Positions 1,229 through 63,016 of a DNA stretch of 64,000 nt are shown one piece after another (position 1 is the first letter of the stretch; each line of letters opens with the position of its first letter). Source of the stretch: an uncultured Candidatus Saccharibacteria bacterium (GTDB taxonomy: Bacteria > Patescibacteriota > Saccharimonadia > Saccharimonadales > AWTP1-31); NCBI GenBank assembly GCA_964409615.1, contig CAYPDT010000001.1, positions 435,880-499,879 of the forward strand, given 5' to 3'. The notes under the pieces were generated by a model. That model saw nothing but the letters and a program-made list of their open reading frames with translations, had not been told where the DNA came from and ran no database searches. The position numbers and the translations under genes are program-made.

Positions 1229-3916
1229 CTACAGAAGGTCTAAAAATTGCTCGAAGAACGACTTGTCGGGTGTTGCTGCATTGCTGGCCAGAGACACAGT
1301 AATCGTAGTTATTTTGGCATCTTTTATGGTCACCATCTGTTTGGCACTGGTACTATAAAATGCATTATTATTTATGGTTTTACGGTTTTTATCACTCACT
1401 TTGGTTAGAATTGCGTAAGCACTGCTTGCCGCATCAGCACTTTTAAATTCGCGAGTCGAGATAATAACCGAGGCAACTCCTTGTGGCTGTACACCATCGA
1501 CAATAAAGGCACAGGCAGACACCTGTCCCTCTTTGGTGACTGTAGTGGGGATACTAACCCGTGGACCGTTAGTCTTTTGCTTAAGAATTTGTTCTAATTT
1601 GGTTCGAGAAACCGTATCGCAGACCGCACTTTTAGCATCTTTTGGTATGGTAACCAATTGGTCCTCGACCGATGTATTGTCTTCGCTGCTATCGTAGATA
1701 ATTTTTCGTTCTGCTACAGGTTGAGCGGTACGGGTTAGCGCAAAGATTCCCCACCCGGCAGCGGCAACCATAACGATAGCCACTCCAACAAATACGCGCT
1801 TATTTACGTTTAATCTCGCAGCTCCATGGCTCCGGGACTTTTGTGTAGTCTTAGTGGAAAACTTCGAGTTCTTACGAAGATAGAAGATAGCTAAGAGTGC
1901 AACCAGGAGCGTAACACTAGGCACAACTATCCATACCGTCTGACCTGTTTGGGCAAGATTAGATGAACCACTTTGTCCACTACCATTACTATTACCTGGG
2001 TTATTAGGTACCGGCTTAATATATGAAGCACCGAGGATATTATTACTCGACCGCGCGAGCAGTATATCTATAACATCAGCGCCTTGGCTAAACAAGCGCG
2101 CATATGGAATAAAGTCTTGGTCGAGCGGTGAACCACCGGTAAAAACATAGTTGGTAAAGCTATCTGGGTTAGATGCAGTAGTGGTTGTGATGGTAGTCTT
2201 TATAACCTCACCTGATGCTAAAGAAGTTATTGGTCCGTCTGGATTATAACCACAAAGCAAAAAGGAATAATCAGAATGCTGATTAAACAAAGTACCTGCA
2301 ATGGCTGCAGAACCTGGGCCAGCCCACGTACAGTTCAAGTCTGGGTTTGACTGCGAAACATGCGTCAGATTAGGTGGCAGCAAATCAACAAACAAAGATG
2401 TCAAAAGTGGGTTAAAGCCTGATGCATCAAGTGTTCGTGGGTCCATACTAAATGGGCCAGCATTGGTAACCGTGATGGTGTAATTAAGCTGCGCACCGGC
2501 AGCGACATCTTGTGGGTTGTCTAGTGTCTTTGTTACCGCCACATCAGCTGGTTGGCTAAAGGCTTGTGCGTAGTTATTTACATCAGCATCTCTTGCACCA
2601 TCCAAAAGGTCACCACCACCATTAAAAATTTCACCTATCGTCTGTTGTTCTGGGTCACCAAAAATAACAGTAGTTAGTATCTTATTGTAAAACACCGGCG
2701 AAGCATCATCTACAACTGTAGCTACAATGACATAGCTAAGGCTTTCACCAGCATGCAAAGTTTTGCCAGAACCACTATAAGCACACGATAATATGCTGTA
2801 ATCACTGTGATTTGCGAAGACAGGGCCGAACATCGAGGCTGAACCAAGCCCACCGTAAAAACAAGCAATATCATCACCACTGACAGAGCTATACTCTAGC
2901 TGAGGCGGTAGAATGTCGTAGAATAATTCAGTTCCCTGCCCAGGAGTAGGGTCACTTACTTGCGACAAATCAAGTGCATCAGGCCCTTCGTTGCGAATGG
3001 TAACTTGGTAGTTTAGAGTATTACCTAGCGCAAAGTTTTCGGCATTTAGTAACTTCTTTTCAGCAACCAGGTCGGTAGTATATTGATGGCTATATAATGT
3101 TTGGTTATAGTTGTTGGTTTGACTGAAAGTTGAGGTAGTTATATCGTTTGAGCCAGCGAGTGCATCTTGGTAAGCGGCTGAATCTTCGTCTGTTATTGGG
3201 GTTGCACCTACCGTGAAAGTCGTCAGATTAGTGACCCGAGATTGCATGACAACAGCACTAAGAGTGTAGGCAACGCTCTGTTCAGCAGCCAGTAGGCTAG
3301 TCCCGCCAGTATGTGCGCACGTAACCACACTATAGTCGGTATGATTAGAAAACTTAGTTCCAAAGGCAACACTGCCAGCTGACCCAGCACCTAAATCGGT
3401 ACAAGTAATGGACGGGCCAGAAATAGCACTATAGGCAAATTCTGGTGGCAGCAGCACAGTGAACAAGAAGTCAGAATCAAAGTTCGAGCTGTTAAGTGTT
3501 GCTAGATCAAATGTGTCAGGGCCGTGATTAGTGGCAGTAATGGTATATTGCACCGTATCGCCCGCTACTAAGCCGACGTTACTGTTTTGCATAACGGTAT
3601 CAAACTGCAAGTCGGTTTTTGGGAGGTACGGCTGCCCCACTGTTCCAAACTCACTGGTAGAGCCGAAGCCACTAAAGGTTGCCGGTTCTAGTTCGGTGGC
3701 CGTGAGTGCAAGATTATTATGTGACGTTCCTGGCAAAGTAGCAGTAAATTCCTGCAGACCAGTTCCACTCGAAGTAACATCTACCTGCCCGATGTAGTTT
3801 TCGCCCTCGCCGGGGAAGTCTGGGTCGGCAACCGTATTGCTAAAGAATTCTATGCGGTAATCACCAGCTGGTACATCCATAGTAAAGGTAACATCAGTAT
3901 TACCAGCCTGTTCCAC
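1229..3916 (-). CDS. DUF11-type repeat surface protein with an internal LPXTG-like sorting signal, fused to a second TM-anchored domain (895 aa)
   Basis: Three ~175-aa repeats, each with a DUF11-like core (QYTITATNHGPDTFDL / NYQVTIRNEGPDALDL / NYTITVTNAGPFSMD) and an LLPPxL...C...NHSDYS...C pattern. LAQTG (1943-1957) is followed by a hydrophobic stretch and RKNSK. About 210 further residues follow, with another TM helix. GTG start, no signal peptide. Confidence 0.7.
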   Translation of the reverse strand: MEQAGNTDVTFTMDVPAGDYRIEFFSNTVADPDFPGEGENYIGQVDVTSSGTGLQEFTATLPGTSHNNLALTATELEPATFSGFGSTSEFGTVGQPYLPKTDLQFDTVMQNSNVGLVAGDTVQYTITATNHGPDTFDLATLNSSNFDSDFLFTVLLPPEFAYSAISGPSITCTDLGAGSAGSVAFGTKFSNHTDYSVVTCAHTGGTSLLAAEQSVAYTLSAVVMQSRVTNLTTFTVGATPITDEDSAAYQDALAGSNDITTSTFSQTNNYNQTLYSHQYTTDLVAEKKLLNAENFALGNTLNYQVTIRNEGPDALDLSQVSDPTPGQGTELFYDILPPQLEYSSVSGDDIACFYGGLGSASMFGPVFANHSDYSILSCAYSGSGKTLHAGESLSYVIVATVVDDASPVFYNKILTTVIFGDPEQQTIGEIFNGGGDLLDGARDADVNNYAQAFSQPADVAVTKTLDNPQDVAAGAQLNYTITVTNAGPFSMDPRTLDASGFNPLLTSLFVDLLPPNLTHVSQSNPDLNCTWAGPGSAAIAGTLFNQHSDYSFLLCGYNPDGPITSLASGEVIKTTITTTTASNPDSFTNYVFTGGSPLDQDFIPYARLFSQGADVIDILLARSSNNILGASYIKPVPNNPGNSNGSGQSGSSNLAQTGQTVWIVVPSVTLLVALLAIFYLRKNSKFSTKTTQKSRSHGAARLNVNKRVFVGVAIVMVAAAGWGIFALTRTAQPVAERKIIYDSSEDNTSVEDQLVTIPKDAKSAVCDTVSRTKLEQILKQKTNGPRVSIPTTVTKEGQVSACAFIVDGVQPQGVASVIISTREFKSADAASSAYAILTKVSDKNRKTINNNAFYSTSAKQMVTIKDAKITTITVSLASNAATPDKSFFEQFLDLL

Positions 3917-4764
3917 GATAGATGTGTAACCGTGCCAGATACACCACCGCCAGTCAGTCCAGTTCCAGCAATTACGCCGTTAATACCGCCCGCTGCACCC
4001 GTAACAGTTATCGTTCCGGTGTTTACGTCTGTAGATATGCTGACACTGCCCGAACCAACTATCGATGCGCTGCCGTTATTAGAAATGCCATTCAAACTAG
4101 ATAGAACTGTTGACTGTAGAGCACTGAGTGGAATTGTTTGACCAAGCCTAGTAACGCTACCGTCCAGTCGTTCGTTGCTGAGTGTGCCTTCGGTAATATT
4201 GCTGGCGTTGAGGTTAGTCAAAGCCGCACCACTGCCCTGAAAACTAGCAGCAGCTACGCCGCCAGAGATGTTAATGTTGCCCACTTGAGCAGGGCCACCA
4301 AGTACCGGGCTCAAGCTTACGGTATTACCCAAAATACTCGCTAGGTCGTTCAGGGCCTGGGCTGATAAATTAAGCTTACCTTGTACGGTTAAATCGCCGT
4401 TGATGGTGACCGTTTGATCGTTTAATGACTGAACCGGTAACAGGGTATCATCACCAAGGACAGGATTTTGCACGGTGTTGTAGGCGTCGATAGTGCTTTG
4501 GTTTTTGCTAGCATTCTTAACTTTGCCAGCAAGTCGTAATGCTGCGAGGCCAAGTCCGGATACAAAAAACATAACTACCAGCAGCAGAATTGCCTGCTTT
4601 TTCCAAGGTCGTGTTGGTCGACTTTTGATTTGTGTCAAGTTTAACTCAGGTTTTTGAGGTACATTAACAGAAGCAACATCAGCGTTAGCCGGTGCCTGCT
4701 GTAGGCTTTCTAAACCGGTTGTCTTTACTTGCTTATTCTGCAAGTCTAACTGCTTATTATTCAT
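3850..4764 (-). CDS. Truncated paralog of the giant fibre protein N-terminus (304 aa); probably the 5' half of a frameshifted chimera with 1229..3916
   Basis: Residues ~49-280 are identical to giant-protein residues ~42-273 (cytoplasmic tail, TM helix ILLLVVMFFVSGLGLAAL, first repeats). After the homology breakpoint (3924) only 24 unrelated codons precede the stop. It overlaps the start of 1229..3916 in another frame. Confidence 0.5.
   Translation of the reverse strand: MNNKQLDLQNKQVKTTGLESLQQAPANADVASVNVPQKPELNLTQIKSRPTRPWKKQAILLLVVMFFVSGLGLAALRLAGKVKNASKNQSTIDAYNTVQNPVLGDDTLLPVQSLNDQTVTINGDLTVQGKLNLSAQALNDLASILGNTVSLSPVLGGPAQVGNINISGGVAAASFQGSGAALTNLNASNITEGTLSNERLDGSVTRLGQTIPLSALQSTVLSSLNGISNNGSASIVGSGSVSISTDVNTGTITVTGAAGGINGVIAGTGLTGGGVSGTVTHLSWNRLVILMLPLLWMYQLVITA
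3924..4621 (-). repeat. 698-bp direct repeat, copy 1 (identical to 13157-13854, offset 9233)
   Basis: Aligned by eye at both boundaries. Translations are identical in three frames: the 304-aa versus giant ORFs, and + strand shadow ORFs 3922..4104 / 4138..4344 versus 13098..13337 / 13371..13577. Confidence 0.9.
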
Positions 4765-4806
4765 AACTCAGAATCGCCGCCAAAATCTTCTTTAATACTA
4801 TGTTCA

Positions 4807-4835
4807 ATTTTACGTGTTTTATAGAGGTAGCACAA
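4807..4835 (-). promoter_or_regulatory. Sigma-70-like promoter of the truncated paralog (TTGTGC-17-TAAAAT)
   Basis: -35 at 4830-4835 and -10 at 4807-4812 (minus-strand sense). Conserved in position with the giant-gene promoter. Confidence 0.55.
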
Positions 4836-4905
4836 GCGGAATGACCCCAGAAAAAAATATGCTCGATTTGCAACCATACAACATAGTGACCGACCAACAA
4901 TTTAG

Positions 4906-5604
4906 TTATTTTGCTAGGATAACAACTACTTCAGTGTCTTGGGGCTGTACCTCACCAGTTGGTAGGGTTGTCTGAATCTCAGCACCAATGACTTGTGCTA
5001 TCTTTTGTGTTTCGACAGCACGTTGCCCACCTGTTACATCTACCACAATATTTTTGGTATATGACGTTTTTTTAGCAGAATTTGCTGTATCAATTACACC
5101 GAGGTCTGTACCCAGGGCCTGATTTATCGACTTCTGGGCAGCCTCTAATCCGGCACTGCTAACGCCTGCATTCATCAAGGCTACTTTTACTTTGCCAGAT
5201 GTATTGATACTAAACGGGCCCTGATTGATTATCTTATTTTCAGAATCACGGTAGATAATTATCTTGCGCGCTTTAGAGTACACAACAAGGTAATCGCCGT
5301 TTTTTGCGTTTGTGAAGAATGGATCTTCACCTAGCTTTTCGCGGTCTGTAACGGCAGCAATTTGCGGTTGTTCGTCTTTTGGCAATTCCATAATCTTACC
5401 AAGTCGTGTTAGCAACTTTTTATTAGTTTCGTCAACTGCACTAGTTGGGTTATCTTTCAGGTTCTTGTACTGTGAGTAATAGAAAATACCAAAGCCAACC
5501 GCCCCGCCGACGACGATAAACAAGGCAACTCCGATAATCAGCTTCTTAACACTGATAAATCTTTCGGTTTTAAATACGGGGCGTTCCATGTTGTTCTCCT
5601 GCAT
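4906..5604 (-). CDS. Membrane-anchored LytR_C (LytR cell-envelope-related C-terminal) domain protein (232 aa)
   Basis: N-terminal TM helix (LIIGVALFIVVGGAVGFGIFYY). The C-terminal part, VKVALMNAGVSSAGLEAAQKSINQALG...NIVVDVTGG...VVVILAK, fits the LytR_C pattern. Its ATG overlaps the giant gene stop (TAATG at 5602-5606), which suggests translational coupling. Confidence 0.65.
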   Translation of the reverse strand: MQENNMERPVFKTERFISVKKLIIGVALFIVVGGAVGFGIFYYSQYKNLKDNPTSAVDETNKKLLTRLGKIMELPKDEQPQIAAVTDREKLGEDPFFTNAKNGDYLVVYSKARKIIIYRDSENKIINQGPFSINTSGKVKVALMNAGVSSAGLEAAQKSINQALGTDLGVIDTANSAKKTSYTKNIVVDVTGGQRAVETQKIAQVIGAEIQTTLPTGEVQPQDTEVVVILAK

Positions 5605-8600
5605 TAGGGTGATTGTTTAACCGACAAAGCAATCCAGTTAAAGTCGATATCTGCCGGTGCGTTGCTTGGCACGGTAATGTCAAAGCCGTCAGCCTGTACG
5701 TTTTTTACAGCGTAACCTGCAGCACTGTCTTTTGGACTTACTGTCACAATCGGTGCTTCAATATATGGTCGCGTGAAGCTAACATGCGCTGTTTTTGTCC
5801 CGGCTTTCATGGTTACTATACCAGCCAAGTCTTTATCAGCAAAGGTTACACGGCCGTCAAAAGCAACGTCGCTTCGGAAGGTCACCTTGTCTTTGAAGGT
5901 TACGAACGAATCAAAACTAACCAAGTTCTGGAATTCGGTTGTTTGGCCAACAATTCCGCCACTCCAAGCAGCTTGGCTGAGTTGCAAAACATCAACCCGT
6001 GCGGACAACCTATCAACTTTAGTATTAAGCTGTTGTACCGATTTAACAATCAACGGGGTAAGTCGCCCGTAGTCGACTGCCCAAGGATCAGTACTTGGGT
6101 CGCTACCACCAACCTTGACTGCATCAGGGAAAATTGCGTATAAGTCTTGAGCCAAGAAGCCTGTCTGGGTGCGATGGGTCGAATCAGTTATGAAGCTATA
6201 GTCGGCAACACTAATTTGCAACAAGTCATCTAGTGTGTAGCGCGTCTCGCTAATATTTTCTTTGAGTCGTTTATCAGATGTGGTGTTGTAGGTGGTAGTG
6301 TTGGCGGTTGTATCGATACTGATACTTCCTAAGTTATCTCCCGAACCGTCAGTGAAGGTAAATAGGTTTTGGGTGCCAGAAGTTTTGCCGGTTAGTACCG
6401 TCACGCCGTTTGTCCCAGTGGCTCCAACCTTGAGACTTATGTTAGTAGTTGTGGTAATGCCGCCAATGTTGATTGTCTTTGCAGCAGCACCAGTTCCGAA
6501 GTTGAGCGTCTGCGCACCGTTGCCGACGCCAATATCAATATTACCTGTCATGGCATTTGATGAACTGCCACCTAGTTCTAGCTTTCCACTGCTCAAGTTG
6601 GGTGCCAGACTTATTTGTGCCGTACTTGTATTACCGCCCAGCACAACGTTTCCTGTGGATTGTAGATATAGCCCGGCTCCACCAAAACTAAAAGTACCTC
6701 CATACGAACCACCGGTTGTGATATTAACTGCACCGGTTGAGGTGAGCGAAGTGCCACCAGTACCGGAGTTGGTAGCGAGTGAAGTATTACCGCTTGAGTT
6801 ACCGATACTGATGTACTGTTGCCAGCCATTTAGTCCGATTTGCATCAAACAACTATTACAAGCGTTCATGTATATTGAGCCACCGTCGACTGAATAGTAG
6901 TTGCCCGCCCGCACCAAGACGGTACTGCTGCTGGTATTGCCTATGGTAATGGCGTTTGCTACAGCACCAGTTCCGATATTGATGGTTTTGCCACCAATGC
7001 CACCAGTTCCGATATTGATGGTTAGCGTGCCGGTACCAGTTGAAATATTCATGGTGCCACTCTCACCGCTAGTACTACCGAGCGAAACTGCTCCTGTAGT
7101 TGTGTCTATGGCAAAAATCGGGATACCTGTTGCGTTATTAATCCTGAAAGCATCGACAGAATTAGATTGATTCTGGAAGGTAGTTGGAGAGTTAATAACA
7201 CCGTTAAAGTTAATACTGCCGAGGTTAAAGAGTGTTGCTGCACTTGAAATCTCAAGCTGCGCAGCATCGACAAAGAATGTTCGAGCAGTTGCGTCAGTTT
7301 GTCGGTAATATACATATCTTGTGCCAGAGACTGATGCACTGGTAACGAACGTACAAGTGTATCTAGTCCAACCGGTCGTAGATACAGTCTGTCCCGTTAG
7401 ACAGCTTGTATTAGTCGAGCCGTCGTTAGTGTAGCCCATTTGGAAGGTAGAGAAATTCGACCCAGAAGCCCTGGCATACACCGAAAAGCTATATTGCGTA
7501 TTAGCAGCCAGTGCAAACGTCGCAAATGCCCCAGCATTTGCAGAGGCCGTAGTTACATTTGAAAGACTACCATTGCCTGAGTATTGATCTGTAGTGGTTC
7601 GGGATATTGTGTCGCCTGTAAAAGCTGTCCAGCCATTGATATTAACATCGAAACTTGGATTCGTGAGGAGGTTGGCATTGTTTTGCCTAACAGTAAATAC
7701 ATTATTAGATGTATTACCCCCCTGAACTTGGAATATGTCGGCAGTTTGTGCGGCAGCACCTTTTATCTGTGCTTGTACAGCAGCAGCCGCACTTCCTGTA
7801 ACCTTGAAGGCTGGGAAAGAATCACTTGAACCAGAGTTAACAACTTCTACAGTATTGCCGGCAGTCGCCTCGAGCTGCAAAACATTCGCATTATTAGAAA
7901 TCTTGTTGTTAGAAATTGTTAGTGCCCGATTACTGCTGTTGAAGATATTCAATGCACCGGTACTAGTGGTATCGAAAGTCAACTGTGGTGTTCCAGTAGC
8001 ATTTTGGATCTGGAAAGCAGATGTGGAGTTCGACTGATTCCGGAAAGTTGCAGGACTATTAATGGTGCCGTTCAGACTAATATTTCCAAGAGAATAGTTA
8101 GTAGGCGTGCTTCCTGTTTCAAGCTGAAAAGCATCTAAGTAAAATGTTCTGGCGGTTGCGTCTGTCTGACGTACATACAAAGATGGTGTGCCGCCCCAAC
8201 TGCCTGGCGTAGTAAACGTACAGCTGATACGATTCCAACCCGTTGTGACTGCCTGCGCCGTAGCGCAAGAAGTGTATGTACTCCCAACCACATATCCTGC
8301 TTCCAATGTACTAAATGCTGAGGCCCCTTTGGCGTAGAACGAGAATGTATAGGTCGTACTTGTCGCTAAAGAGTATGACTGCCGAACGCCGTCTCCGGTG
8401 GCTGCTGTCGGACCAACAGCTAGCCCCGCCGGGCCAGAGTACGTTTCTGCTGTTGTCCTGGCAAAAGAAGTAGAGTTAAGGTTTGTCCATCCCGTTGTAT
8501 TCGTATCAAAAGATGGATTGACAATTAGGTTAGAATTGTTCTGCGAAACCGAAAGAATATTATTAACCGTATTACCACCCTTTACCTGTAATATGTCTGT

Positions 8601-11600
8601 GGTTTGGACTCCACTAAAACCTTGGACCATCAAGCCTACCTTGTTGGCATCTTGAGTAAACTGTTGGATAGCCACTACATTAGAAGTACCCGAATTGACG
8701 GCGAAGACATTGCCATAGCCCCCAGATCCAACACTCAAGGTTCCCGTACTGCCCGGGCCAAGTTGCAAACTAGCTGCCCCCAGGTATGAATTCGCACCAG
8801 CACCGCCCGTGATATTAGCCGAGGTACATGGCCCAACACACAGCACTCCAGTACTGGTATTAAAACTCATTTGATCAGCCCCAGCCGCATTCTGAATACT
8901 GAGGGCACGTTGTGAATCTGTCGCATTACGCAAACGCAACGAACTAGAGATAACACCATTAAGATCAATTTGTCCAGGCTGATATTCGGTAGCAACTGAT
9001 CCCAATTCCAACTGGACACCATCAATGTACATAGGGCCAGAATGTCGAATATAGAGGTATGTGCTCCCTGAAACTGTTCCGGTAGTAAAAGTACAGGTCA
9101 TGCGACTCCAAGTATTGGCCGGGATATTCCAGTTATGATTGTTACAGTCAGTGTTTGTCGACCCATTTTCTGATCTACCCGTATAGGCATTGGTCCAGCC
9201 GGCGGTATACCGTCCGTAGTACGAAAGCGTATATGTAGTATTAGAGGCAAGAGCGTACGTGTACTTAACCCCATCACTAGCAGTTGTACCGCTAAACGAA
9301 AGTGCGCCATCGCCTACAAAGGTAGGGCTCGTAATTTGAGAAAAAGTGCTAGAACCCAGTGCTGTCCAGCCAGAAGTATCAGTATCAAAACCAGAATTGT
9401 CTATCAGGTTGGGAGTAACTTGATTAACAGAGAATATTGGAGTTGCTTGCGCAGTCCCATCCTTTACCTGCAAAATATCGGCGGTCTGCGCCCCAGCACC
9501 TTGGATAACTGCTGTAACGTTTGCAGCGTTTGCCGATTGGATATTCATATTAGCAGTTTGGGTAGTGGTTTGGTTCTTAATTACGTTATTTGCAGATGAA
9601 GATACAGTACAGCCAGTACTGTCACACACCTGGTTACCTCCAACCCTCAGGGCAGTAGTTGAGTTAATATCACCAGCTACATCGAGAGTATAGCTTGCGG
9701 TGGCCTTACCGATGGCGACACGGTTGTTATATGTGTCGGCAACGAACAGATTGCTCGTTCCGGCATTATTCTGAATTTGGAAAGCTGTGGTCGTGTCTGA
9801 TTGATTCCTGAACACTGCTGGGCTAGTGAACATACCTGAGAAACTTAATGTAGCTTCTTGATATGGAGTTAGCGTCGAACCAATTTCAATCTGCATCGCA
9901 TCTACGAAGAAAACTCGTGAAATAGCATCGGTCTGCCTATAGTACACGTTACGAACAACACTTGCGGGTGTAGTAAAAGTACATGTATAGCGCTGCCACA
10001 CAGCAGAAGAGACGGTCTGCCCTGTTAGACAACTGGTGAATGTTGTATTGTCGGTATACCCCATCTCGAAGGTTGAGAAGCTTGACCCAGAGGCTTTGGC
10101 GTACACCGAAAGAGTGTATGTAGTATTCAACGCAAGGTTAGTCCATATCTGGCGAACCCCATCATTTGCTGCTGCTGTGGTGGCAATTCTAAGACTACCA
10201 ATCCCAGCATACTGCTCTGCTGTACTCCGTGTGAGGGTAGCAGAACCCAATGCACTAACGCCACCGGTTCCTGTATCAAAGTTCGAGACTGTGCCAAAGA
10301 GGTTTGTTCCGGCTGATGGATTGACGATTAATGGTGTGGCATTCTGCGTAGTATCTCCTACAGTAAGGCTACCGCCGTTGTATACGTTGCTATTGGCGTA
10401 TTGAGAGAAAGCTCCGCCCCCAGACACGGTAAGTGCACTCGCTGCAGCTGCAGTAACGCTCATACTACCAACGGACGATAGAGCAAAGCCATTAGAGACT
10501 GTAGCGCCGCCATTCCCAGTATTACTGAGGCTAAATATGTTAGTGCCCGTTGCATTTTGTAATGAAAATGCAGTGTTTGAATTTGATTGTGTACGAATGA
10601 CTACCGGCGAGTTTACCACCCCGTTCAATGCAATTGTCCCTTGTTGAAATGCAGTAGTAGTGGTTCCTGGCTCTACCTGCACGGCATCTACATAAAAACT
10701 TCGCGCTGTGGCATCGGTTTGGCGAATGCCTATAAAGCGCGTGCCAGAAACGGATGCACTAGTAGTGAAGGAACATGTATAGCGTGTCCACCCACCAACT
10801 AATACAACCTGATTGTTAACACAGTTAGATTGCGTTGTGCCGTCATTTGTAAAGGTAATCTGCATGCTACCCCACTGAGTGGTATTTACCCGTGAGTAGA
10901 AAGAAACAGCATATGATGTACTTGCGGCAAACTGATAATTATATCTGGCGCCATCGTTAGCTGCTGCTGTAGTTGTAACGAGCAGCGAGCCCAATCCAAT
11001 ATATTGGTCGGTAGTCGAACGTGCGATTGAAGCATTACCAAGAGCTGACCACCCAGAGGTATCGACATCGAAACTTGGGTTAGTTATGATGTTTGTCGTA
11101 TTCTGACTAACCCCTAGTAGTGTTGAGCCGCCACCAGAAGTAACTTGCAAGATGTCTGCTACCTGGGCGGTCGACCCCTGAATGGTTGCCGTAACACTGT
11201 TAGCATCAGCCGATTTGATGTTCATGTTAGCAGTCTGGGTGGAGGTGCCATTTTGGATGTAGTTGTTACTACCGCTACCTATAGCGTAGCCACAATTATT
11301 GCTAGTGTCGCAAACTTGGTTTGAGCCCTGATAGATTGCCCCTGTACTGGTTATCTTGGCAACAACATCGTTATTTTGGTCGCGGGCTTGCAATAAGTCT
11401 GCTGTCTGACCAGTCGCTCCCTGCACTACAGCGACCACACTACTGCTACTGGCTGATTGAATATTCAGGTTTGCCGTCTGTGTAGTAAGGCCGTTTTGGA
11501 TGTAGTTGTTGCTGCCTGAACTTGGAGCACAAGTTGCTGTTGGGCCACAAATAGCTACTCCATTAATGCGGAAACTATTGCCCGCCGCGATGTTAATATC

Positions 11601-13976
11601 TCCGTTAACATCCAACGTATAGCCAGCCGTTGCTTGGCCAATGGCAATACGAGTGTTGGTTGTGTCGGCAACAAACAAGTTGCTAGCAGCGGCATTTTGA
11701 ATCTGGAAGGCAGTGGTTGAATCGGTAGCGTTTTTAAAGAGGTTAGCAGCACTAAATGTTTGAGCACCGTTCAGCTTTGCAATATTACTGTCGTTACTCA
11801 AATTAGCACTGCTGATCTGAGTGCCATTAACTTGGAATTGGCCCGTAGTGCTAATGTTGCCGCTGGCGTCAATCTTGGCAATTACGTTGTTGCTGGCATC
11901 TGTAGCTTGGAGCAAGTTAGCAGTCTGGCTTGTTTTTGCCTTGAGTACAACTGTTGGACTGGTGGTAGCTGTCGATTCAATGTTAAAGTTGGCACCCGTC
12001 TGAAGTGAGGTACCGTTTTGGATGTAGAAATTAGCCCCTGCACTTGCTGCACAACCACTGGCATCACAAACCAAGTTACCGCCTACCCGTAAGCCAGTAG
12101 CAGAGTTAATATCTCCGTTAACATCCAATGTATAACCAGCTGTTGCTTGGCCAATGGCAACCCGAGTGTTAGTGCTGTCTACCGTGAATACGTTGGTTGA
12201 ACCCGCGGCATTCTGTACGCGAAATGCAGTGGTTGAATCTGCGCCTGCTTTGTATAATCCACTAGCTCCAATTGTCACTAAGCTGCCGGTATCGCTAATC
12301 GAGCTATCGCCTATCGATTGACTGCCGGTAAATTTAGCCAGTTTGTTAGTGTTTCCACCAAGCGTTGTAACACCACCACCAGCGCTTGCACAGTTACCAA
12401 CAGTAGTACAGAGCGTATAGGTTCCGGGGGAGGTAGCGGCATCGAGATTGTAAATTACATTTCCGGTGGGTGTTCCGGTAAAACCGAGGCTCACCGTACC
12501 CGAACCACTGGTAGCAGTCAGCTTAGTAGTCAGGTCACCCTGCAGCGTCAGCGACTGATTAGTAGCACCGATGACCATCGAAGCTGATGGTTGAATAACG
12601 TTTACAGTCAGCGGTTGAGAAAAGACCACATTGCCAGTGAATGTTTGGTTAGCATTCAATAGGGCAACGTTGGCGCTTAATCGCCCGTCGGCTAAGGTAC
12701 CAGCACTGATATTGCTGGCGTTGAGGTTGGTTAAAGCCGCACCGCTGAGGGCTGGTAGATTACCGCTGTTATCAAGTTTTACTAACTTGTTAGCTAGGTT
12801 GAAAGTATTGCCCTGCAATGTAACGTTTGCCCCCAAACGCGCATCGGCTAAGGTACCAGCACCGATATTGCTGGCGTTGAGGTTGGTTAAGTTTGTTGCG
12901 CTGATTACGGGCAGCTCACCCGCGCCATTAAGCTTGACCAGTTGGTTGGTACCGTTAAAGGTGTTGCCTTGCATGGTGACGTTAGCACTCAAACGACTGT
13001 CACTAACAGTGCCACTACTGATATTGCTGGCGTTGAGGTTGGTTAAGTTTGTTGCGCTGATTACGGGTAGTTCGCCTGCGCCATTAAGCTTGACCAGTTG
13101 GTTGGTACCGTTAAAGGTGTTGCCTTGCATGGTGACAACGCCACTATCTACATCGAGTGTAACCGTGCCAGATACACCACCGCCAGTCAGTCCAGTTCCA
13201 GCAATTACGCCGTTAATACCGCCCGCTGCACCCGTAACAGTTATCGTTCCGGTGTTTACGTCTGTAGATATGCTGACACTGCCCGAACCAACTATCGATG
13301 CGCTGCCGTTATTAGAAATGCCATTCAAACTAGATAGAACTGTTGACTGTAGAGCACTGAGTGGAATTGTTTGACCAAGCCTAGTAACGCTACCGTCCAG
13401 TCGTTCGTTGCTGAGTGTGCCTTCGGTAATATTGCTGGCGTTGAGGTTAGTCAAAGCCGCACCACTGCCCTGAAAACTAGCAGCAGCTACGCCGCCAGAG
13501 ATGTTAATGTTGCCCACTTGAGCAGGGCCACCAAGTACCGGGCTCAAGCTTACGGTATTACCCAAAATACTCGCTAGGTCGTTCAGGGCCTGGGCTGATA
13601 AATTAAGCTTACCTTGTACGGTTAAATCGCCGTTGATGGTGACCGTTTGATCGTTTAATGACTGAACCGGTAACAGGGTATCATCACCAAGGACAGGATT
13701 TTGCACGGTGTTGTAGGCGTCGATAGTGCTTTGGTTTTTGCTAGCATTCTTAACTTTGCCAGCAAGTCGTAATGCTGCGAGGCCAAGTCCGGATACAAAA
13801 AACATAACTACCAGCAGCAGAATTGCCTGCTTTTTCCAAGGTCGTGTTGGTCGATTTTGAGAAATTTTGGGTGACGAAGTAGAAGCAGCACGCTCATTAG
13901 CCGGTGCTTGTTCTAAGCTCTCTAAACCGGTTGATTTGACTTGCTCATTTTGCAAGCCTGCCTGTTTGTTATTCAT
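5604..13976 (-). CDS. Giant membrane-anchored tail-fibre-like surface protein with C-terminal Peptidase_S74 intramolecular-chaperone domain (2,790 aa)
   Basis: Short cytoplasmic tail plus one TM helix. Three 52-aa tandem repeats. Recurring fibre segments (TAFQIQNAAG..LFVADT.NTR.AIGQATAGYTLDVNGDIN). Five CBM4/9-like modules (NPSFD..T.GW ... W.RYTCTFTT ... F.VDA.Q.E). C-terminal SDKRLKENISETRYTLDDLL...TGFLAQDLYAIFPDAV...VDYGRLTPLIVKSVQQL matches the Peptidase_S74 (endosialidase chaperone) consensus. Confidence 0.9.
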   Translation of the reverse strand: MNNKQAGLQNEQVKSTGLESLEQAPANERAASTSSPKISQNRPTRPWKKQAILLLVVMFFVSGLGLAALRLAGKVKNASKNQSTIDAYNTVQNPVLGDDTLLPVQSLNDQTVTINGDLTVQGKLNLSAQALNDLASILGNTVSLSPVLGGPAQVGNINISGGVAAASFQGSGAALTNLNASNITEGTLSNERLDGSVTRLGQTIPLSALQSTVLSSLNGISNNGSASIVGSGSVSISTDVNTGTITVTGAAGGINGVIAGTGLTGGGVSGTVTLDVDSGVVTMQGNTFNGTNQLVKLNGAGELPVISATNLTNLNASNISSGTVSDSRLSANVTMQGNTFNGTNQLVKLNGAGELPVISATNLTNLNASNIGAGTLADARLGANVTLQGNTFNLANKLVKLDNSGNLPALSGAALTNLNASNISAGTLADGRLSANVALLNANQTFTGNVVFSQPLTVNVIQPSASMVIGATNQSLTLQGDLTTKLTATSGSGTVSLGFTGTPTGNVIYNLDAATSPGTYTLCTTVGNCASAGGGVTTLGGNTNKLAKFTGSQSIGDSSISDTGSLVTIGASGLYKAGADSTTAFRVQNAAGSTNVFTVDSTNTRVAIGQATAGYTLDVNGDINSATGLRVGGNLVCDASGCAASAGANFYIQNGTSLQTGANFNIESTATTSPTVVLKAKTSQTANLLQATDASNNVIAKIDASGNISTTGQFQVNGTQISSANLSNDSNIAKLNGAQTFSAANLFKNATDSTTAFQIQNAAASNLFVADTTNTRIAIGQATAGYTLDVNGDINIAAGNSFRINGVAICGPTATCAPSSGSNNYIQNGLTTQTANLNIQSASSSSVVAVVQGATGQTADLLQARDQNNDVVAKITSTGAIYQGSNQVCDTSNNCGYAIGSGSNNYIQNGTSTQTANMNIKSADANSVTATIQGSTAQVADILQVTSGGGSTLLGVSQNTTNIITNPSFDVDTSGWSALGNASIARSTTDQYIGLGSLLVTTTAAANDGARYNYQFAASTSYAVSFYSRVNTTQWGSMQITFTNDGTTQSNCVNNQVVLVGGWTRYTCSFTTSASVSGTRFIGIRQTDATARSFYVDAVQVEPGTTTTAFQQGTIALNGVVNSPVVIRTQSNSNTAFSLQNATGTNIFSLSNTGNGGATVSNGFALSSVGSMSVTAAAASALTVSGGGAFSQYANSNVYNGGSLTVGDTTQNATPLIVNPSAGTNLFGTVSNFDTGTGGVSALGSATLTRSTAEQYAGIGSLRIATTAAANDGVRQIWTNLALNTTYTLSVYAKASGSSFSTFEMGYTDNTTFTSCLTGQTVSSAVWQRYTCTFTTPASVVRNVYYRQTDAISRVFFVDAMQIEIGSTLTPYQEATLSFSGMFTSPAVFRNQSDTTTAFQIQNNAGTSNLFVADTYNNRVAIGKATASYTLDVAGDINSTTALRVGGNQVCDSTGCTVSSSANNVIKNQTTTQTANMNIQSANAANVTAVIQGAGAQTADILQVKDGTAQATPIFSVNQVTPNLIDNSGFDTDTSGWTALGSSTFSQITSPTFVGDGALSFSGTTASDGVKYTYALASNTTYTLSYYGRYTAGWTNAYTGRSENGSTNTDCNNHNWNIPANTWSRMTCTFTTGTVSGSTYLYIRHSGPMYIDGVQLELGSVATEYQPGQIDLNGVISSSLRLRNATDSQRALSIQNAAGADQMSFNTSTGVLCVGPCTSANITGGAGANSYLGAASLQLGPGSTGTLSVGSGGYGNVFAVNSGTSNVVAIQQFTQDANKVGLMVQGFSGVQTTDILQVKGGNTVNNILSVSQNNSNLIVNPSFDTNTTGWTNLNSTSFARTTAETYSGPAGLAVGPTAATGDGVRQSYSLATSTTYTFSFYAKGASAFSTLEAGYVVGSTYTSCATAQAVTTGWNRISCTFTTPGSWGGTPSLYVRQTDATARTFYLDAFQLETGSTPTNYSLGNISLNGTINSPATFRNQSNSTSAFQIQNATGTPQLTFDTTSTGALNIFNSSNRALTISNNKISNNANVLQLEATAGNTVEVVNSGSSDSFPAFKVTGSAAAAVQAQIKGAAAQTADIFQVQGGNTSNNVFTVRQNNANLLTNPSFDVNINGWTAFTGDTISRTTTDQYSGNGSLSNVTTASANAGAFATFALAANTQYSFSVYARASGSNFSTFQMGYTNDGSTNTSCLTGQTVSTTGWTRYTCTFVTSASVSGTRYVYYRQTDATARTFFVDAAQLEISSAATLFNLGSINFNGVINSPTTFQNQSNSVDAFRINNATGIPIFAIDTTTGAVSLGSTSGESGTMNISTGTGTLTINIGTGGIGGKTINIGTGAVANAITIGNTSSSTVLVRAGNYYSVDGGSIYMNACNSCLMQIGLNGWQQYISIGNSSGNTSLATNSGTGGTSLTSTGAVNITTGGSYGGTFSFGGAGLYLQSTGNVVLGGNTSTAQISLAPNLSSGKLELGGSSSNAMTGNIDIGVGNGAQTLNFGTGAAAKTINIGGITTTTNISLKVGATGTNGVTVLTGKTSGTQNLFTFTDGSGDNLGSISIDTTANTTTYNTTSDKRLKENISETRYTLDDLLQISVADYSFITDSTHRTQTGFLAQDLYAIFPDAVKVGGSDPSTDPWAVDYGRLTPLIVKSVQQLNTKVDRLSARVDVLQLSQAAWSGGIVGQTTEFQNLVSFDSFVTFKDKVTFRSDVAFDGRVTFADKDLAGIVTMKAGTKTAHVSFTRPYIEAPIVTVSPKDSAAGYAVKNVQADGFDITVPSNAPADIDFNWIALSVKQSP
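7238..11093 (-). repeat. Five ~290-aa super-repeats (fibre segment plus CBM4/9-like module) within the giant gene
   Basis: The module-start Asn codons of N(P/S/F).FD lie at 11079-81, 10281-83, 9396-98, 8517-19 and 7659-61 (aa 966, 1232, 1527, 1820, 2106). Confidence 0.8.
12663..13130 (-). repeat. Three tandem 156-bp (52-aa) coding repeats in the giant gene
   Basis: Units 12975-13130 and 12819-12974 are near-identical (MQGNTFNGTNQLVKLNGAGELPVISATNLTNLNASNI..GT..D.RL.ANVT). The third unit, 12663-12818, is diverged. Confidence 0.85.
13157..13854 (-). repeat. 698-bp direct repeat, copy 2 (5' coding module of the giant fibre gene)
   Basis: See copy 1. The upstream flanks (13855-~14060 versus 4622-~4850) are homologous but diverged. 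The downstream flanks are unrelated. Confidence 0.9.
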
Positions 13977-14018
13977 GATGCAAAATCGCTATCAATTTCC
14001 TCTTATTTCTTATGTTTA

Positions 14019-14047
14019 ATTTTACGTGATTTTTAGAGGTAATACAA
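14019..14047 (-). promoter_or_regulatory. Sigma-70-like promoter of the giant fibre gene (TTGTAT-17-TAAAAT)
   Basis: -35 at 14042-14047 and -10 at 14019-14024, located in the 120-bp gap after the kinase gene. Confidence 0.55.
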
Positions 14048-14096
14048 GCAGCATTCCCCGTAGCACAGGTTGTTAGTATTCGGCTATTTGAGTTTG

Positions 14097-17000
14097 CTAA
14101 ATGCTAGCGTTAGCAGTGATGGGTGCAACGAGTAATGGCGCAAGCTTTTTACTCTTTTGCAGTGCTGGCAAGCGTACTGTTACAGTGGTGCCGTTCTTAC
14201 TGCTGCGCACCTCTAGTCGTCCGCCTAACTTCTCGGCAATAATTCTGTTGATATGAAGGCTCAGTCCAAGCCCCTCATAGTTAAATGTCTCGGTACTGGT
14301 GGCACGATAAAATGGTTCAGATAAATGGGCCAGGTGGTCTGGATCAATACCGGTTCCATTATCTATCACCCGCAGATTCACCCAGTTACCCGCCTGTTGG
14401 GCAGAGATAGTCACTCGCCCACCAGGCTTACTAAACATGATGGAGTTGTCTGTCAACGATTCAATGATTTGTGCCAGCTCTTGGGGCTGAATAGCAACGC
14501 GTAAGCTAGCCGGTACGTCTAGCTGTAACTGTACCTGCTTTTCGGCCGCCTTGGCCTGCAGTTTACTGATGGCTCGAGGCACCTCTTGGCCAAGATTCAG
14601 CTCGGGTGAATCAACTGTTTTGGCTGAGTATAAACGTACTTTTTGCAAACTCTCTACCATTTGACCTAGAGCATGTAGACCGTTAAAGAACGTTCTTGTT
14701 TCGGGAATCGCGTGTAACTCTTGGGATATGATAGTGATATTTTCATAATGTCCTGCCAATGTTTCTGCTGCTCGTGACATAAAAGCGTTCCGTTCTTCTA
14801 TCAATTTCTGCTGAGAAATGATGGCACTTCGTGCAATCTCTTGCGAAGCACGCTGAACATCTTTGTACTTCTGAAAACCTACAAGCAATACTGCAAACAG
14901 CACTAAGCAAATCACCTGCAAAGCTGTTTGTACCGATGCAAGCACGTACACGTTTGTCAGACCAAACAGAAGCGTCACAAGCGCGAACAAACTGCCAGCA
15001 ACCACAATTGGTAGCCACACAGCTTTTTGCATAAGCGGGCTCGTGTCACCCCCACCACTCCATGCTGTAGAGCTAGTGACAACTGGGCTCGACAACTCAA
15101 GCTGACTCTGCGAGGCTAGCTGATGAACATCTTGGCCATACTTTTTTAATGCCGTTTCTAGCCGTTGCGTTGCCCAATCGGGAAGTTTTTTTAGCGATAC
15201 AAGCAACTCTAGCGCTCCACTCATAATTGCCACAGGCGTATTTAGGTAGTGATTCGTGATTGATACATACGAATCTGTTGCTTGTTTTATGGTCTTCATG
15301 TGTTCTAATTGCTCTTGTAGCTGGCGGCGGACAAGATATTCTTTGTACCCCCGGCGCCCGTACAACAATGCCAAAAATAGCAGTACTAGCAAAATAAACC
15401 ACGAGATAGCCCGGGCAATCGGTTCAACTATAAATGGCTTTTTAACGACTGCTTTTGTCTTGGGAAGTTCAGTAATACTGCCCACTGGCCGACGTTGGAG
15501 TAGTTGTTGATTTTGTTGTTGCTGCAGAGGCTGAGGCTCCTGATTGCCGCTCGCTACTGGCTGATTTTGAGTCATGTTGGGAACAGGCCGGGTTGGCACT
15601 CGTGGTGGAGGCATTGTGCTATTGGTCCCAGTAGAGCCCCCACTAGGAGCAGTTGGGTCTGGTGGGTTAGTGGTCTCGGTGCCAAGCACTACTTGCACGT
15701 TTACCTGTACTCGCCCCGCTACGAAGCCCTTAAAGTTAAGAAATCCTGAATTTGCATTCAATAGTGACGACGAGAACACAAAACCAATAGTGCCTATCTC
15801 GAGGATACTCTCAATGGAGTTAGTGGTCGAGTTATATATCCCCCAGTTGCCATCACCTTGTCTAAAAGTGTATTTACCGGGTGATTCCTGCAGTGGGGCT
15901 ATCTCCCGTACAATACCTGGGAATTCTTTTGATGACAGTGCATTGCCTGTCGTAGTATCGAACCGTTGCAACAGGTTACTACTGCCTGACACCATGAAAG
16001 CAATTGTGCCGTCTTGCGTAATACCAACCGTGTTATCGCCACTGCCATTCGATATATTTTTGGCAAACGTTACGTCCCGATTCACCGTCCAATCGTTTGT
16101 GTTTATCACCTTCATATCACCCACGGCACCACTGATCGCCGGTGAAAGATACAGCTTCTGCTGATCGGCACGGTAGTCGGCAGTGACTCTCGAGTAGTAG
16201 CGAGAAGTCACTGGATACGTACCAAGAAGTGTATAGCTATGGGCATCGAATATCTGGTAAGTATCAACATAGAAGTCTCCGTCCGATGGATTTCCTTGAT
16301 ATTCTCCACCATACACAATAAAGAAATCATTAGAAGGAGCGTCGACTGCTAACATCTTTTTGCTAGTGTTAAGTCGAGTAATCTGCCCTGTTGTAGTGTC
16401 AAAGATATCGACAGCCGAATCTAATCCAGTTGGGATGTAGATTTTCGTGCGGTCCGGAGATTGCGCTATCTTCTTCATCACATTGCCAGTCGTAATATTG
16501 AAGGGGCCGTTTGTGTCGAGGTCATAGGTTGTGGTCTGCATGGTAGTCAGATTTAACTCGGTGTACTTGTTGGCGGTACTAGTGTTTATAAAATATGTCT
16601 TTAGACCGTCAGCAGAGGTGAACACCGAGCAGTTCTCAAAAACATCCATGCCGATCGTTGCCGAGCCAGTGGTTTGTTTGGTGACAAGATCATACTTGTA
16701 TAATGTCAGACCGGCCTGAGAATACGAGTCCATGCTAAAGGTAAGGGCAACATTGCCATCTGGCGAGAGATACTGCGGAATACGCCCGTCGAAATCAATG
16801 TCGTCGTGAATTTCTACCTGGTTTTGTGCAAAGTTATAAAACTGATATCCGGTAACATTAAACTCTTCGCCCAAATAAGCAATAGGAAAGCCCGTCGAAT
16901 CAGCGCTGGCCTGTGCTGTTATGGTTGCTGCACCTGGTGTTAAACCGGTCAGTTGGTACGTCCAGTTATTGTTCTGGTCGGCAACCGCTGCCCCCTTCTG

Positions 17001-23096: not shown

Positions 23097-23542
23097 ACCG
23101 CAAGCCTTTTCATTAGTCGTGCCCTACCGGCAAAAAAGCCAGATTGCAACGAGTGGTCGTAATGCTTCTTTGGTGTCTGAATTATCACACCCGCACCAAT
23201 AGTGCTATCAGTACGAAAACTTACTATCACTCGGCCGGTCATCTGAGCACTAAACCAGTTCTGGATGGCTTGCTGCTGGGCTTCTTCCAGAGGTTGGGCA
23301 GTCACAATTTTTACTACCGGCAATTCTGCTACTAATCGCCCAACTTCCGACCGCAGCTGTGCAGTGGTTTGGGCAGTAAGCTGGTCTAAACCATTCTCTG
23401 TAAGTATTGCCTGTAAATCTACAGACAACCCATGTTTTTTTCGCTTAGTCGAAAGAGCAACATCAAGTTCTGCCAAGAGTTGCTTGAGGCGTTCGAGAGT
23501 GCCGATAGATACCGGTATGCTAATTGCTGCCCTACTCACCAC
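23093..23542 (-). CDS. atpH: ATP synthase subunit delta (OSCP-like, 149 aa)
   Basis: Lies between b and alpha. The C-terminal part, VSFRTDSTIGAGVIIQTPKKHYDHSLQ, resembles the delta C-terminal pattern (..D.SLIGG..I..G....D.S). Confidence 0.65.
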   Translation of the reverse strand: MVSRAAISIPVSIGTLERLKQLLAELDVALSTKRKKHGLSVDLQAILTENGLDQLTAQTTAQLRSEVGRLVAELPVVKIVTAQPLEEAQQQAIQNWFSAQMTGRVIVSFRTDSTIGAGVIIQTPKKHYDHSLQSGFFAGRARLMKRLAV

Positions 23543-24149
23543 TTAACTCCTTGAATAAATCATCTTTATTAGCTTCGAGGCGAGCAAGTATAAACTCTTG
23601 CTGGTCACCCAACTCTAAGCCCTGCAAACTACTCTGGAGGTAATCGGCCAAAACGTCAGCAGCCTGCTCTTCTACCAACGACTTCACGCGTGCCAAGACT
23701 TTGGTCCGATAATCACCCAAGACCGCTTGATGTTCTTGTTGCAAAGCCTCTATATCTTTCTGTAGCTTTGCCATGCTCTGTTGTAACGAACCAGCGTCTC
23801 CGGCAACGAGCCCTTTAACTTGTTCTATCTGTTCGGCAGCAGCCTGTTGCAAGGCTTCACGATTTTGGGCCAAGCTTTCTTCTAGATTAGCCAAAGTCTG
23901 TTTTTTAGCTTGAGCCACTACCTCAGCAATCTCTTTCTTAAGCGGGGACATGGCTGAAACAACATGGGCTTGCACATCTTTTTCTAACTCTTTACGGAGG
24001 TTAGCGATAAAGCTTGGTTGTAAGATGGTGAGTTTTAACTCTTGCCGATATTTATCACGCGCCCAGGTTCGCTCGCGCATCAACATAATTAGGGCTATAG
24101 CAGTCACTACAAGACATCCTAAAACCCCCAACCAGCGAACATCAAACAT
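23532..24149 (-). CDS. atpF: ATP synthase subunit b-like (205 aa)
   Basis: Single N-terminal TM helix followed by a long Ala/Gln/Glu-rich coiled coil. Sits immediately upstream of delta. Confidence 0.6.
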   Translation of the reverse strand: MFDVRWLGVLGCLVVTAIALIMLMRERTWARDKYRQELKLTILQPSFIANLRKELEKDVQAHVVSAMSPLKKEIAEVVAQAKKQTLANLEESLAQNREALQQAAAEQIEQVKGLVAGDAGSLQQSMAKLQKDIEALQQEHQAVLGDYRTKVLARVKSLVEEQAADVLADYLQSSLQGLELGDQQEFILARLEANKDDLFKELSGE

Positions 24150-24153
24150 CTTG

Positions 24154-62863: not shown

Positions 62864-62868
62864 GCAAT

Positions 62869-63016
62869 AGCCCACTCACAGAGCCCACTGCCACTAGACT
62901 CTCCGTCAGCGCAGCCGGGTTGGTATGACAAGGAAATGCGATAATGTTATTGCAGTTCAGTTGTCATGCCATCCGCGCGTGAGCGGTCTAGTGGCAGTGG
63001 GCTCTGTGAGTGGGCT
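62869..63016 (+). repeat. Long-hairpin element, copy 2 (candidate structured RNA / terminator, plus-strand sense)
   Basis: Perfect 31-bp outer arms (62869-62899 / 62986-63016), an 86-nt conserved core, and an inner helix GGTATGACAA/TTGTCATGCC. A T-run (63021-63026) begins 4 nt after the 3' arm. Confidence 0.8.

Follow-up and report, generated by a model that had tools for sequence, protein, structure and literature searches.

In phage tail fibres and tailspikes the Peptidase_S74 domain is an intramolecular chaperone that drives folding from the C-terminus, and it plays the same part in the eukaryotic transcription factor MyRF and in the mosaic adhesive trimer (MAT) fibres of the predatory bacterium Bdellovibrio. 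Here we describe a cellular gene whose 2,790-aa product (hereafter the fibre protein) combines such a domain with an N-terminal membrane anchor and a shaft of carbohydrate-binding-module (CBM)-like jelly rolls. It lies on the minus strand of a 64,000-nucleotide stretch of DNA, referred to below as the window (GCA_964409615.1, contig CAYPDT010000001.1, positions 435,880 to 499,879), from an uncultured Candidatus Saccharibacteria bacterium. Saccharibacteria and other bacteria of the candidate phyla radiation (CPR) live attached to host bacteria; to our knowledge, how they recognize and hold those hosts is a largely open question beyond type IV pili. We consider it probable that the product is a giant, N-terminally anchored, trimeric, S74-folded and glycan-binding surface fibre for attachment to the host.

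Comparison with described S74 and adhesin systems

The closest known system is the S74 subgroup of the MAT fibres of Bdellovibrio bacteriovorus (e.g., Bd3182), which are surface trimers that aid prey handling, carry an S74 domain with an SDxxxK motif for which self-cleavage at S782 was experimentally demonstrated, and form a family with a constant N-terminal domain, swapped tips and either S74 or non-S74 ends (Caulton et al. 2024, PMC10769870). Like them, the fibre protein would form a cellular, non-phage surface fibre of a bacterium that attacks other bacteria; both share the S74 domain with its SDxxxK motif, and both belong to mosaic families in which S74 and non-S74 members stand on a shared stalk. 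The two differ in their anchoring, in that the MATs have a cleavable signal peptide and a conserved ~130-aa β-rich N-terminal domain that binds a diderm surface element, whereas the fibre protein has an N-terminal transmembrane (TM) helix preceded by a 50-aa cytoplasmic tail. They also differ in size (~900-1,100 aa in the MATs, whereas the fibre protein is about three times as long), in the array of five CBM jelly rolls that its shaft carries, in the coiled coil and H-type-lectin-like β-sandwich that follow the S74 domain only in the fibre protein, and in the fixed position of its gene beside the atp operon.

Phage fibres and tailspikes (K1F endosialidase, 3GW6; T5 pb1, 4UW8/8hqz; 8jov; S16 gp37, 6f45) share the S74 fold, the Ser/Lys dyad, the placement of the domain after a fibre or β-helix region, and a repeat-rich architecture. 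However, the fibre protein is membrane-anchored rather than part of a virion, and its chain continues well beyond the S74 domain. MyRF (7dc3) is likewise a membrane-anchored cellular protein that trimerizes and self-cleaves through an S74-type domain, but it lacks fibre regions and CBMs and has the reverse topology, with its N-terminal part released and its C-terminal part kept in the membrane. The trimeric autotransporter adhesins (YadA/UspA1) are also long trimeric adhesive fibres, and some members of the family described here carry YadA-head-like repeats (PF05658); in contrast to the autotransporters, the fibre protein is anchored N-terminally by a TM helix, and Pfam searches of it recovered no C-terminal YadA-type β-barrel anchor.

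The S74 domain and the C-terminal module

The fibre gene is a single open reading frame (ORF) with an ATG start and its stop codon within the coordinates (Table 1), in keeping with the one-gene reading of the original prediction, which had been made from the DNA letters alone. A protein on a 698,658-bp NCBI contig (P0001) is identical to its product and independent assemblies hold near-identical copies or fragments, so that the gene is real and not an assembly artefact. The product is rich in T, S, G, A, and N and has 24 cysteines arranged in 12 closely spaced pairs, a pattern expected of an exported protein.

The S74 profile (PF13884) is matched over its whole length (positions 1-58 of 58) with 44.8 bits against a cut-off of 22. 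The dyad motif reads S2567-D-K-R-L-K2572, with S, R, L, and K invariant across 15 S74-bearing homologs aligned from 150 residues before the Ser through the C-terminus (alignment A1). The A1 profile matches a phage tail fibre chain (8jov, E 2.5e-15), as well as the tip of the S16 long tail fibre (6f45), T5 pb1 (8hqz), and MyRF (7dc3); in 8jov, 6f45, and 8hqz the match reaches to within a few residues of the chain end. In an AlphaFold2 (AF2) monomer model covering aa 2417-2790, the S74 region is predicted with a pLDDT of ~70-79 and the terminal β-sandwich with 84-94. In Foldseek searches the best PDB structural match of the S74 region is the MyRF ICA domain (7dc3, E 1.9e-4, TM-score 0.60 relative to the target), and the S74 model has 268 structural matches to viral ICA proteins in BFVD.

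The long helix that follows the S74 fold in the model is probably a coiled coil. Beyond it, the terminal β-sandwich is matched by Foldseek to the Helix pomatia agglutinin (2ccv, E 1.8e-3, TM-score 0.51), with similar matches to the C-terminal domains of several phage tailspikes. The H_lectin profile (PF09458) aligns to the last 105 residues over profile positions 2-66 of 67 with 20.8 bits (E 4.2e-4), below its 24-bit cut-off, and we accordingly term the domain H-lectin-like only. The original prediction had placed a Peptidase_S74 domain at the C-terminus: the domain is indeed present, whereas its terminal position does not stand, as ~170 residues follow it. A HMMER search with the A1 alignment against 1.84 billion representative proteins recovered 207,250 matches at E<=1e-3, of which 1,848 reach E<=1e-30, and most of the best 150 align through the last profile positions, which indicates that an end made of S74, helix and β-sandwich is a common module. 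The location of the S74 domain away from the extreme C-terminus is thus a variant architecture that does not exclude the protein from the S74/ICA class.

The shaft: CBM-like jelly rolls and fibre repeats

Five stretches of the fibre protein match the CBM_4_9 profile (PF02018; E 3.1e-49, 167 bits against a cut-off of 25.9), in agreement with the jelly-roll units proposed earlier, and the same five units are recognized by the NCBIfam model GTA_spike_fiber ('phage head spike fiber domain', E 5e-37). Self-comparison places them in five super-repeats of ~290 aa, each with one jelly roll. The AF2 model of the fifth unit (aa 2040-2300), for which repeats from within the protein were aligned with those of homologs, reaches a pLDDT of 83.5 overall and >90 in the core; Foldseek matches it best to CBM22 (4xuo, E 1.6e-8, TM-score 0.74), then to CBM16 and CBM4, with TM-scores of 0.74-0.76 relative to these glycan-chain-binding targets. 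These fold matches agree with a direct sequence match of the fourth unit to CBM16 (PDB 2zew, E 7e-6).

N-terminal to and between the jelly rolls are two further kinds of repeat. The LNASN repeat occurs in four copies (at aa 175, 311, 363, and 415). The fibre repeat, of the TAFQIQNA type noted in the original prediction, is present in three full copies of ~140 aa with 52-56% mutual identity, and segments of the form TAF[QRS].QN...DT.N.R.AIG....YTLDV.GDIN are found at aa 583, 755, 1135 (degenerate), and 1397. Outside the Saccharibacteria the motif is found next to the S74 domain: in a Bacteriovorax protein (L032), KVGIGMLSPVYTLDVTGDINSS stands immediately before the S74 site SCTSDIRLKENI, and the form ..VGIG....Y.LDV.GDIN lies just upstream of the S74 site in proteins of predatory Bacteriovorax as well as of Bacteroidota, Planctomycetota, and Marinamargulisbacteria (L031 and L032, Bacteriovoracaceae/Bacteriovorax; L037, L038, and L040). 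All the other non-saccharibacterial matches show this placement too. It would seem, then, that the motif belongs with S74 and was multiplied along the saccharibacterial shaft. Between the last jelly roll and the S74 domain is a G/T/N/S-rich region shared with the closest homologs only, which we presume to be a trimeric β-helix; in the search of the A1 profile against solved chains this region gave a weak match to UspA1 (E 0.007).

The membrane anchor

A single segment of the whole protein (AILLLVVMFFVSGLGLAAL, directly after RPTRPWKKQ) is strongly hydrophobic by the criterion of a Kyte-Doolittle hydropathy >1.6 in a 19-aa window, as the original prediction of a bacterial signal-anchor N-terminus had suggested. 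A comparable segment lies within the first 250 residues in 103 of 120 homologs (median start at aa 70). In these 103 proteins the net charge is +3.5 before the TM segment and +1.3 after it, a bias toward the N-terminal side that fits an orientation with the N-terminus inside.

A mosaic family at a conserved chromosomal locus

Proteins of this type form a large family. A homolog search recovered 184 giant proteins, those with named sources being from Candidatus Saccharibacteria, Saccharimonadales or Patescibacteria, and some bearing the NCBI name 'tail fiber domain-containing protein'. Scanning GTDB representatives, a set that excludes the window's own genome (best match L001, 93%), with an alignment of the fibre repeat (A2) yielded 42 loci, mostly in Saccharibacteria, with a few in Bacteriovorax, Bacteriovoracaceae, Bacteroidota, Planctomycetota, Elusimicrobia, and Marinamargulisbacteria. 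Across 120 homologs the fibre repeat (100) and the LNASN repeats (94) are widespread, while the terminal sandwich (22), a conserved N-terminal module corresponding to aa 80-170 (19), and the S74 region (18) are each found in a minority. The distal parts of the homologs contain Kelch repeats, β-helix or pectate-lyase-like domains, or YadA-head-like repeats.

The gene occupies a fixed position. In 10 saccharibacterial loci a member of the family starts just downstream of atpD, behind the genes atpA-G-D(-C), with AtpD identity to the window falling from 88% to 52%; the order in one of them (L043) is OSCP-atpA-atpG-atpD-atpC, the fibre gene, a 222-aa gene, pyruvate kinase, PGK, and TIM. In the window the genes upstream of the fibre gene are a 1,695-aa sensor histidine kinase followed by atpD, atpG, and atpA and, farther away, Dus, an ABC transporter, an MFS transporter, a Mur ligase, an NYN-domain protein, and NUDIX. 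Housekeeping genes on both sides together with the atp synteny define a stable chromosomal locus rather than a prophage, and bear out the earlier statement that this is a cellular gene with no phage genes around it. One might still suppose, from the tail-fibre-like domain content, that the gene is part of a prophage, a tailocin or another phage-derived particle whose other genes lie beyond the region covered. This is close to refuted: PHROGs searches gave no structural phage matches in the 5.6 kb downstream and the nearest 14 kb upstream, Pfam searches of the ORFs tested to ~26 kb upstream found cellular functions only and no phage families, an ortholog is flanked by the atp operon on one side and by the glycolytic genes on the other, the GC content of the gene is like that of the rest of the window, and an N-terminal TM anchor is incompatible with virion assembly.

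At this conserved locus the encoded proteins range from 1,674 to 3,841 aa, and in the family the anchor and stalk base stay constant while the distal modules are swapped. An S74 end is present in L008, L013, L016, and L019 and absent from L001, L003, and L004. Even the closest genome (L001/P0002) illustrates this: AtpD is 88% and the N-terminal module of the fibre protein 86% identical to the window, whereas identity drops to 48% in the CBM part and no S74 end is present, the domains including Kelch repeats instead. The constant N-terminal module and varying distal parts thus point to exchangeable distal modules.

This mosaicism bears on a second way of understanding the protein, namely as a general envelope or matrix component (a glycocalyx, an S-layer-like scaffold or a device that captures polysaccharide from the environment) and not a host-recognition adhesin. 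The retention of the atp-adjacent locus across very diverged Saccharibacteria would fit a core structural role, the CBM4/9/16/22-like folds are classically those of plant-polysaccharide enzymes, and a giant sensor kinase with Ig-like ectodomains is encoded directly upstream both here and in L001. Nevertheless, we regard such a role as unlikely, since the replacement of distal modules even between close relatives is typical of receptor-binding proteins and unlike lattice scaffolds, homologs bear Kelch, β-helix or YadA-head-like tips, and Pfam detects no SLH or other S-layer domains.

Relationship to phage fibres

The original prediction also raised the possibility of a domesticated phage receptor-binding protein. 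Taken in the sense of a recently captured tail-fibre gene that acquired a membrane anchor, this could draw on the abundance of the S74 domain in phage fibres (230 records in INPHARED in addition to the BFVD structures), on the LNASN repeat shared with a cyanophage tail fibre, and on the NCBIfam label of the CBM units. The extent of the phage likeness argues otherwise. When the C-terminal 262 aa were compared with 50,697 phage genomes (INPHARED), the alignments in all 230 matching records were confined to the S74 part (28-37% identity) and in no case extended to the terminal sandwich. The region of aa 80-900 matched three records only, all through the LNASN repeats: two are records of a single phage, S-SRM01 of Synechococcus (tail fibre, 35% identity), and one is a marine virus. 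The fibre repeats had no phage matches at E<=1e-3, and two IMG/VR scans found no relatives, an absence that is weak evidence because these scans depend on short patterns. With the phage similarity limited to S74 and one type of repeat, and with a large family whose synteny extends throughout the class, recent domestication is unsupported, and we hold it to be highly improbable. The S74 domains of other saccharibacterial family members are 24-35% identical to that of the window, and hence as distant as the phage ones. The identities of 24-37% to phages and some paralogs, over so short a domain, indicate little phylogenetic resolving power. As far as such comparisons go, the sharing of modules with phage fibres is real but old, and the direction of the ancient transfer cannot be told.

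Proposed assembly and function

Taking these features together, we propose that the 50-aa tail would stay in the cytoplasm and that the TM segment would serve as an uncleaved signal anchor, with ~2,700 residues exported; the extracellular part would hence be far longer than the several hundred residues previously envisaged for the fibre. The C-terminal module of S74, coiled coil and β-sandwich would emerge last, bring three chains into register and nucleate fibre folding, which would proceed from the C-terminal to the N-terminal end. The Ser2567/Lys2572 dyad would then probably cut between T2566 and S2567, releasing a 224-aa fragment and exposing the G/T/N-rich region as the distal tip. Along its shaft of fibre motifs the mature fibre would display the five CBM4/9/16/22-type jelly rolls and would bind polysaccharide, most plausibly the cell-wall glycans of the bacterial host; through such binding it would help the cell to attach to its host or to recognize it. 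The adhesion to a glycan or host cell put forward in the original prediction is the best reading of the protein, given the analogous MAT fibres of Bdellovibrio (PMC10769870). A study of type IV pili in Saccharibacteria found that host cell-wall glycans matter for attachment and postulated additional close-range adhesins (PMC11623550).

Several observations weigh against a trimeric, self-cleaving, glycan-binding host adhesin. The AF2 monomer model of the region before S74 is poor (pLDDT <50), as is expected of an intertwined trimer. The ~170 residues beyond S74 are unlike the solved phage chains, which end at that domain. The predicted self-cleavage is read from two residues, and the CBM folds that suggest glycan binding do not tell the ligand. 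A promoter of its own, of the sigma-70 type, had been claimed for the gene, and this claim is not confirmed: a consensus scan of 13800-14300 returned no sites, and inspection of the 120-nt spacer by eye revealed only TTGTAT-17-TAAAAT (3/6 + 5/6), so that the fibre gene may share a transcript with the histidine kinase gene upstream of it. Finally, as regards cultivated Saccharibacteria, the transposon-sequencing (Tn-seq) study of Southlakia names other adhesin-type proteins (VCBS, dockerin, FN3) and is silent on proteins of this kind, and a search of the accessible literature found no paper linking CPR or Saccharibacteria to S74, tail fibres or intramolecular chaperones.

Cellular, S74-terminated mosaic adhesive fibres are already known, and in Saccharibacteria the present family is large and uncharacterised. 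With predatory Bdellovibrio as the precedent, it adds an ultrasmall epibiont to the cellular, non-viral users of the S74 chaperone-protease, with a different mode of anchoring and an extra domain after the predicted cleavage site. Proteins with the hallmarks of receptor-binding molecules (i.e., large, anchored, predicted to bind glycans, with swapped tips and a fixed locus) are candidates for mediators of close-range adhesion and host range, and can be tested as such because genetic tools exist for cultivated Saccharibacteria.

A duplicated 5' module

A direct duplicate of the 5' module of the fibre gene lies 9.2 kb downstream of the original. Its 914 bp (3924-4837) are 92% identical to 13157-14049, and 100% identical over the last 300 nt. 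The duplicate encodes a 304-aa anchored stub (ORF 3850-4764, minus strand). The frame of this stub is interrupted precisely where the duplication ends, and the stub abuts, out of frame, an ORF with DUF11 repeats that has a sorting signal but no secretion signal of its own. Either an indel has split a second fibre gene into the duplicate and the DUF11 ORF, or the two are what a recombination event left behind; both origins are consistent with modules being exchanged where the constant region ends. We rejected the 304-aa ORF as a separate conserved gene: its tblastn matches upstream of fibre genes in other loci are the N-termini of those genes, because it copies the 5' module of the fibre gene. 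The DUF11 ORF continues for ~190 aa beyond the sorting signal, and this extension resembles another membrane protein.

A bolder, and quite doubtful, interpretation is that the post-atp locus is a host-range determinant of Saccharibacteria that evolves like a phage receptor-binding gene and whose S74 domain releases a functional lectin-like fragment. Interchangeable distal cassettes would then be recombined with a constant module of promoter, anchor and stalk base, and the duplicated module may be a trace of cassette exchange. Were this so, the S74 cleavage would release a soluble trimeric lectin-like fragment that could, for example, prime or mark the host surface.

Neighbouring genes and other features of the window

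The coordinates of the features are collected in Table 1.

Table 1. Features of the fibre gene, its product and the adjoining genes (window coordinates; aa, residues of the fibre protein)
Feature	Residues (aa)	Window coordinates	Strand	Basis or remark
Fibre gene	1-2790	5604..13976	(-)	ORF list, translation; 2,790 aa
N-terminal cytoplasmic tail	1-50	13827..13976	(-)	GLESL motif at aa 17; RPTRPWKK just before TM segment
Single TM signal anchor	51-72	13761..13826	(-)	Kyte-Doolittle hydropathy
LTNLNASNI..GTL.D.RL repeats, ~52 aa each	171-450	12627..13466	(-)	Self-comparison
Fibre repeat 1, TAFRVQNA...RVAIGQATAGYTLDVNGDIN...C..(S/T)GC	557-700	11877..12308	(-)	Self-BLAST
Fibre repeat 2	729-873	11358..11792	(-)	54% identity to repeat 1 (self-BLAST)
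CBM_4_9-type jelly roll 1	966-1102	10671..11081	(-)	Pfam, NCBIfam; boundaries from conserved motifs
CBM jelly roll 2	1231-1364	9885..10286	(-)	Pfam, self-comparison
Fibre repeat 3	1388-1506	9459..9815	(-)	53% identity to repeat 1 (self-BLAST)
CBM jelly roll 3	1527-1657	9006..9398	(-)	Pfam, self-comparison
CBM jelly roll 4	1820-1950	8127..8519	(-)	Pfam, self-comparison
CBM jelly roll 5	2106-2242	7251..7661	(-)	Best Pfam stretch
G/T/N/S-rich region before S74	2300-2566	6279..7079	(-)	Short internal repeats
Peptidase_S74 core	2567-2621	6114..6278	(-)	Pfam, E 1.5e-11
S2567, predicted nucleophile and cleavage site	2567	6276-6278	(-)	SDxxxK motif
K2572, predicted base	2572	6261-6263	(-)	SDxxxK motif
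Rest of S74 fold and long helix	2622-2669	5970..6113	(-)	AF2 helix, model residues 220-253
C-terminal β-sandwich, H-type-lectin-like	2690-2790	5607..5909	(-)	AF2, Foldseek, Pfam
Spacer upstream of fibre gene, 120 nt		13977..14096	(-)	Consensus scan: neither promoter nor terminator found
Sensor histidine kinase, 1,695 aa		14097-19184	(-)	HATPase_c at kinase aa 1567-1674; directly upstream of fibre gene
232-aa single-pass membrane protein gene		4906..5604	(-)	ATG overlaps fibre stop codon (TAATG)
Direct duplicate of fibre 5' module		3924..4837	(-)	blastn; 73-nt leader and codons 1-273
895-aa ORF with DUF11 repeats		1229-3916	(-)	LAQTG, hydrophobic segment and RKNSK (sortase-type sorting signal)

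The 232-aa protein encoded directly downstream is probably a functional partner of the fibre. Homologs of its gene directly follow the fibre gene in L008 and L043, lie ~3 kb downstream in L016, and are nearby in L013 and L024. The protein has no matches in Pfam (even at E<=10), NCBIfam or PHROGs; a LytR_C-like domain guessed from its sequence pattern was dropped for want of any Pfam match at that threshold. The sensor kinase on the other side is predicted to cross the membrane about six times, and its ectodomain of ~1,100 aa contains Ig-like domains (Big_13, Big_7). Its gene is inserted between those for AtpD and the fibre protein both in the window and in L001, the closest genome (41% identity), but is absent from this place in more distant genomes.

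A search against Rfam gave no matches. Two ORFs of 205 and 278 aa without a Pfam family (23532-24990, minus strand) lie upstream of the atp operon and keep the same position in the saccharibacterial loci L004, L008, and L013. Farther along, an 846-aa ORF on the plus strand (25770-28310) is likewise without a Pfam family, and comparison of the window with itself revealed an inverted match of 150 nt with 81% identity at 62868-63017.

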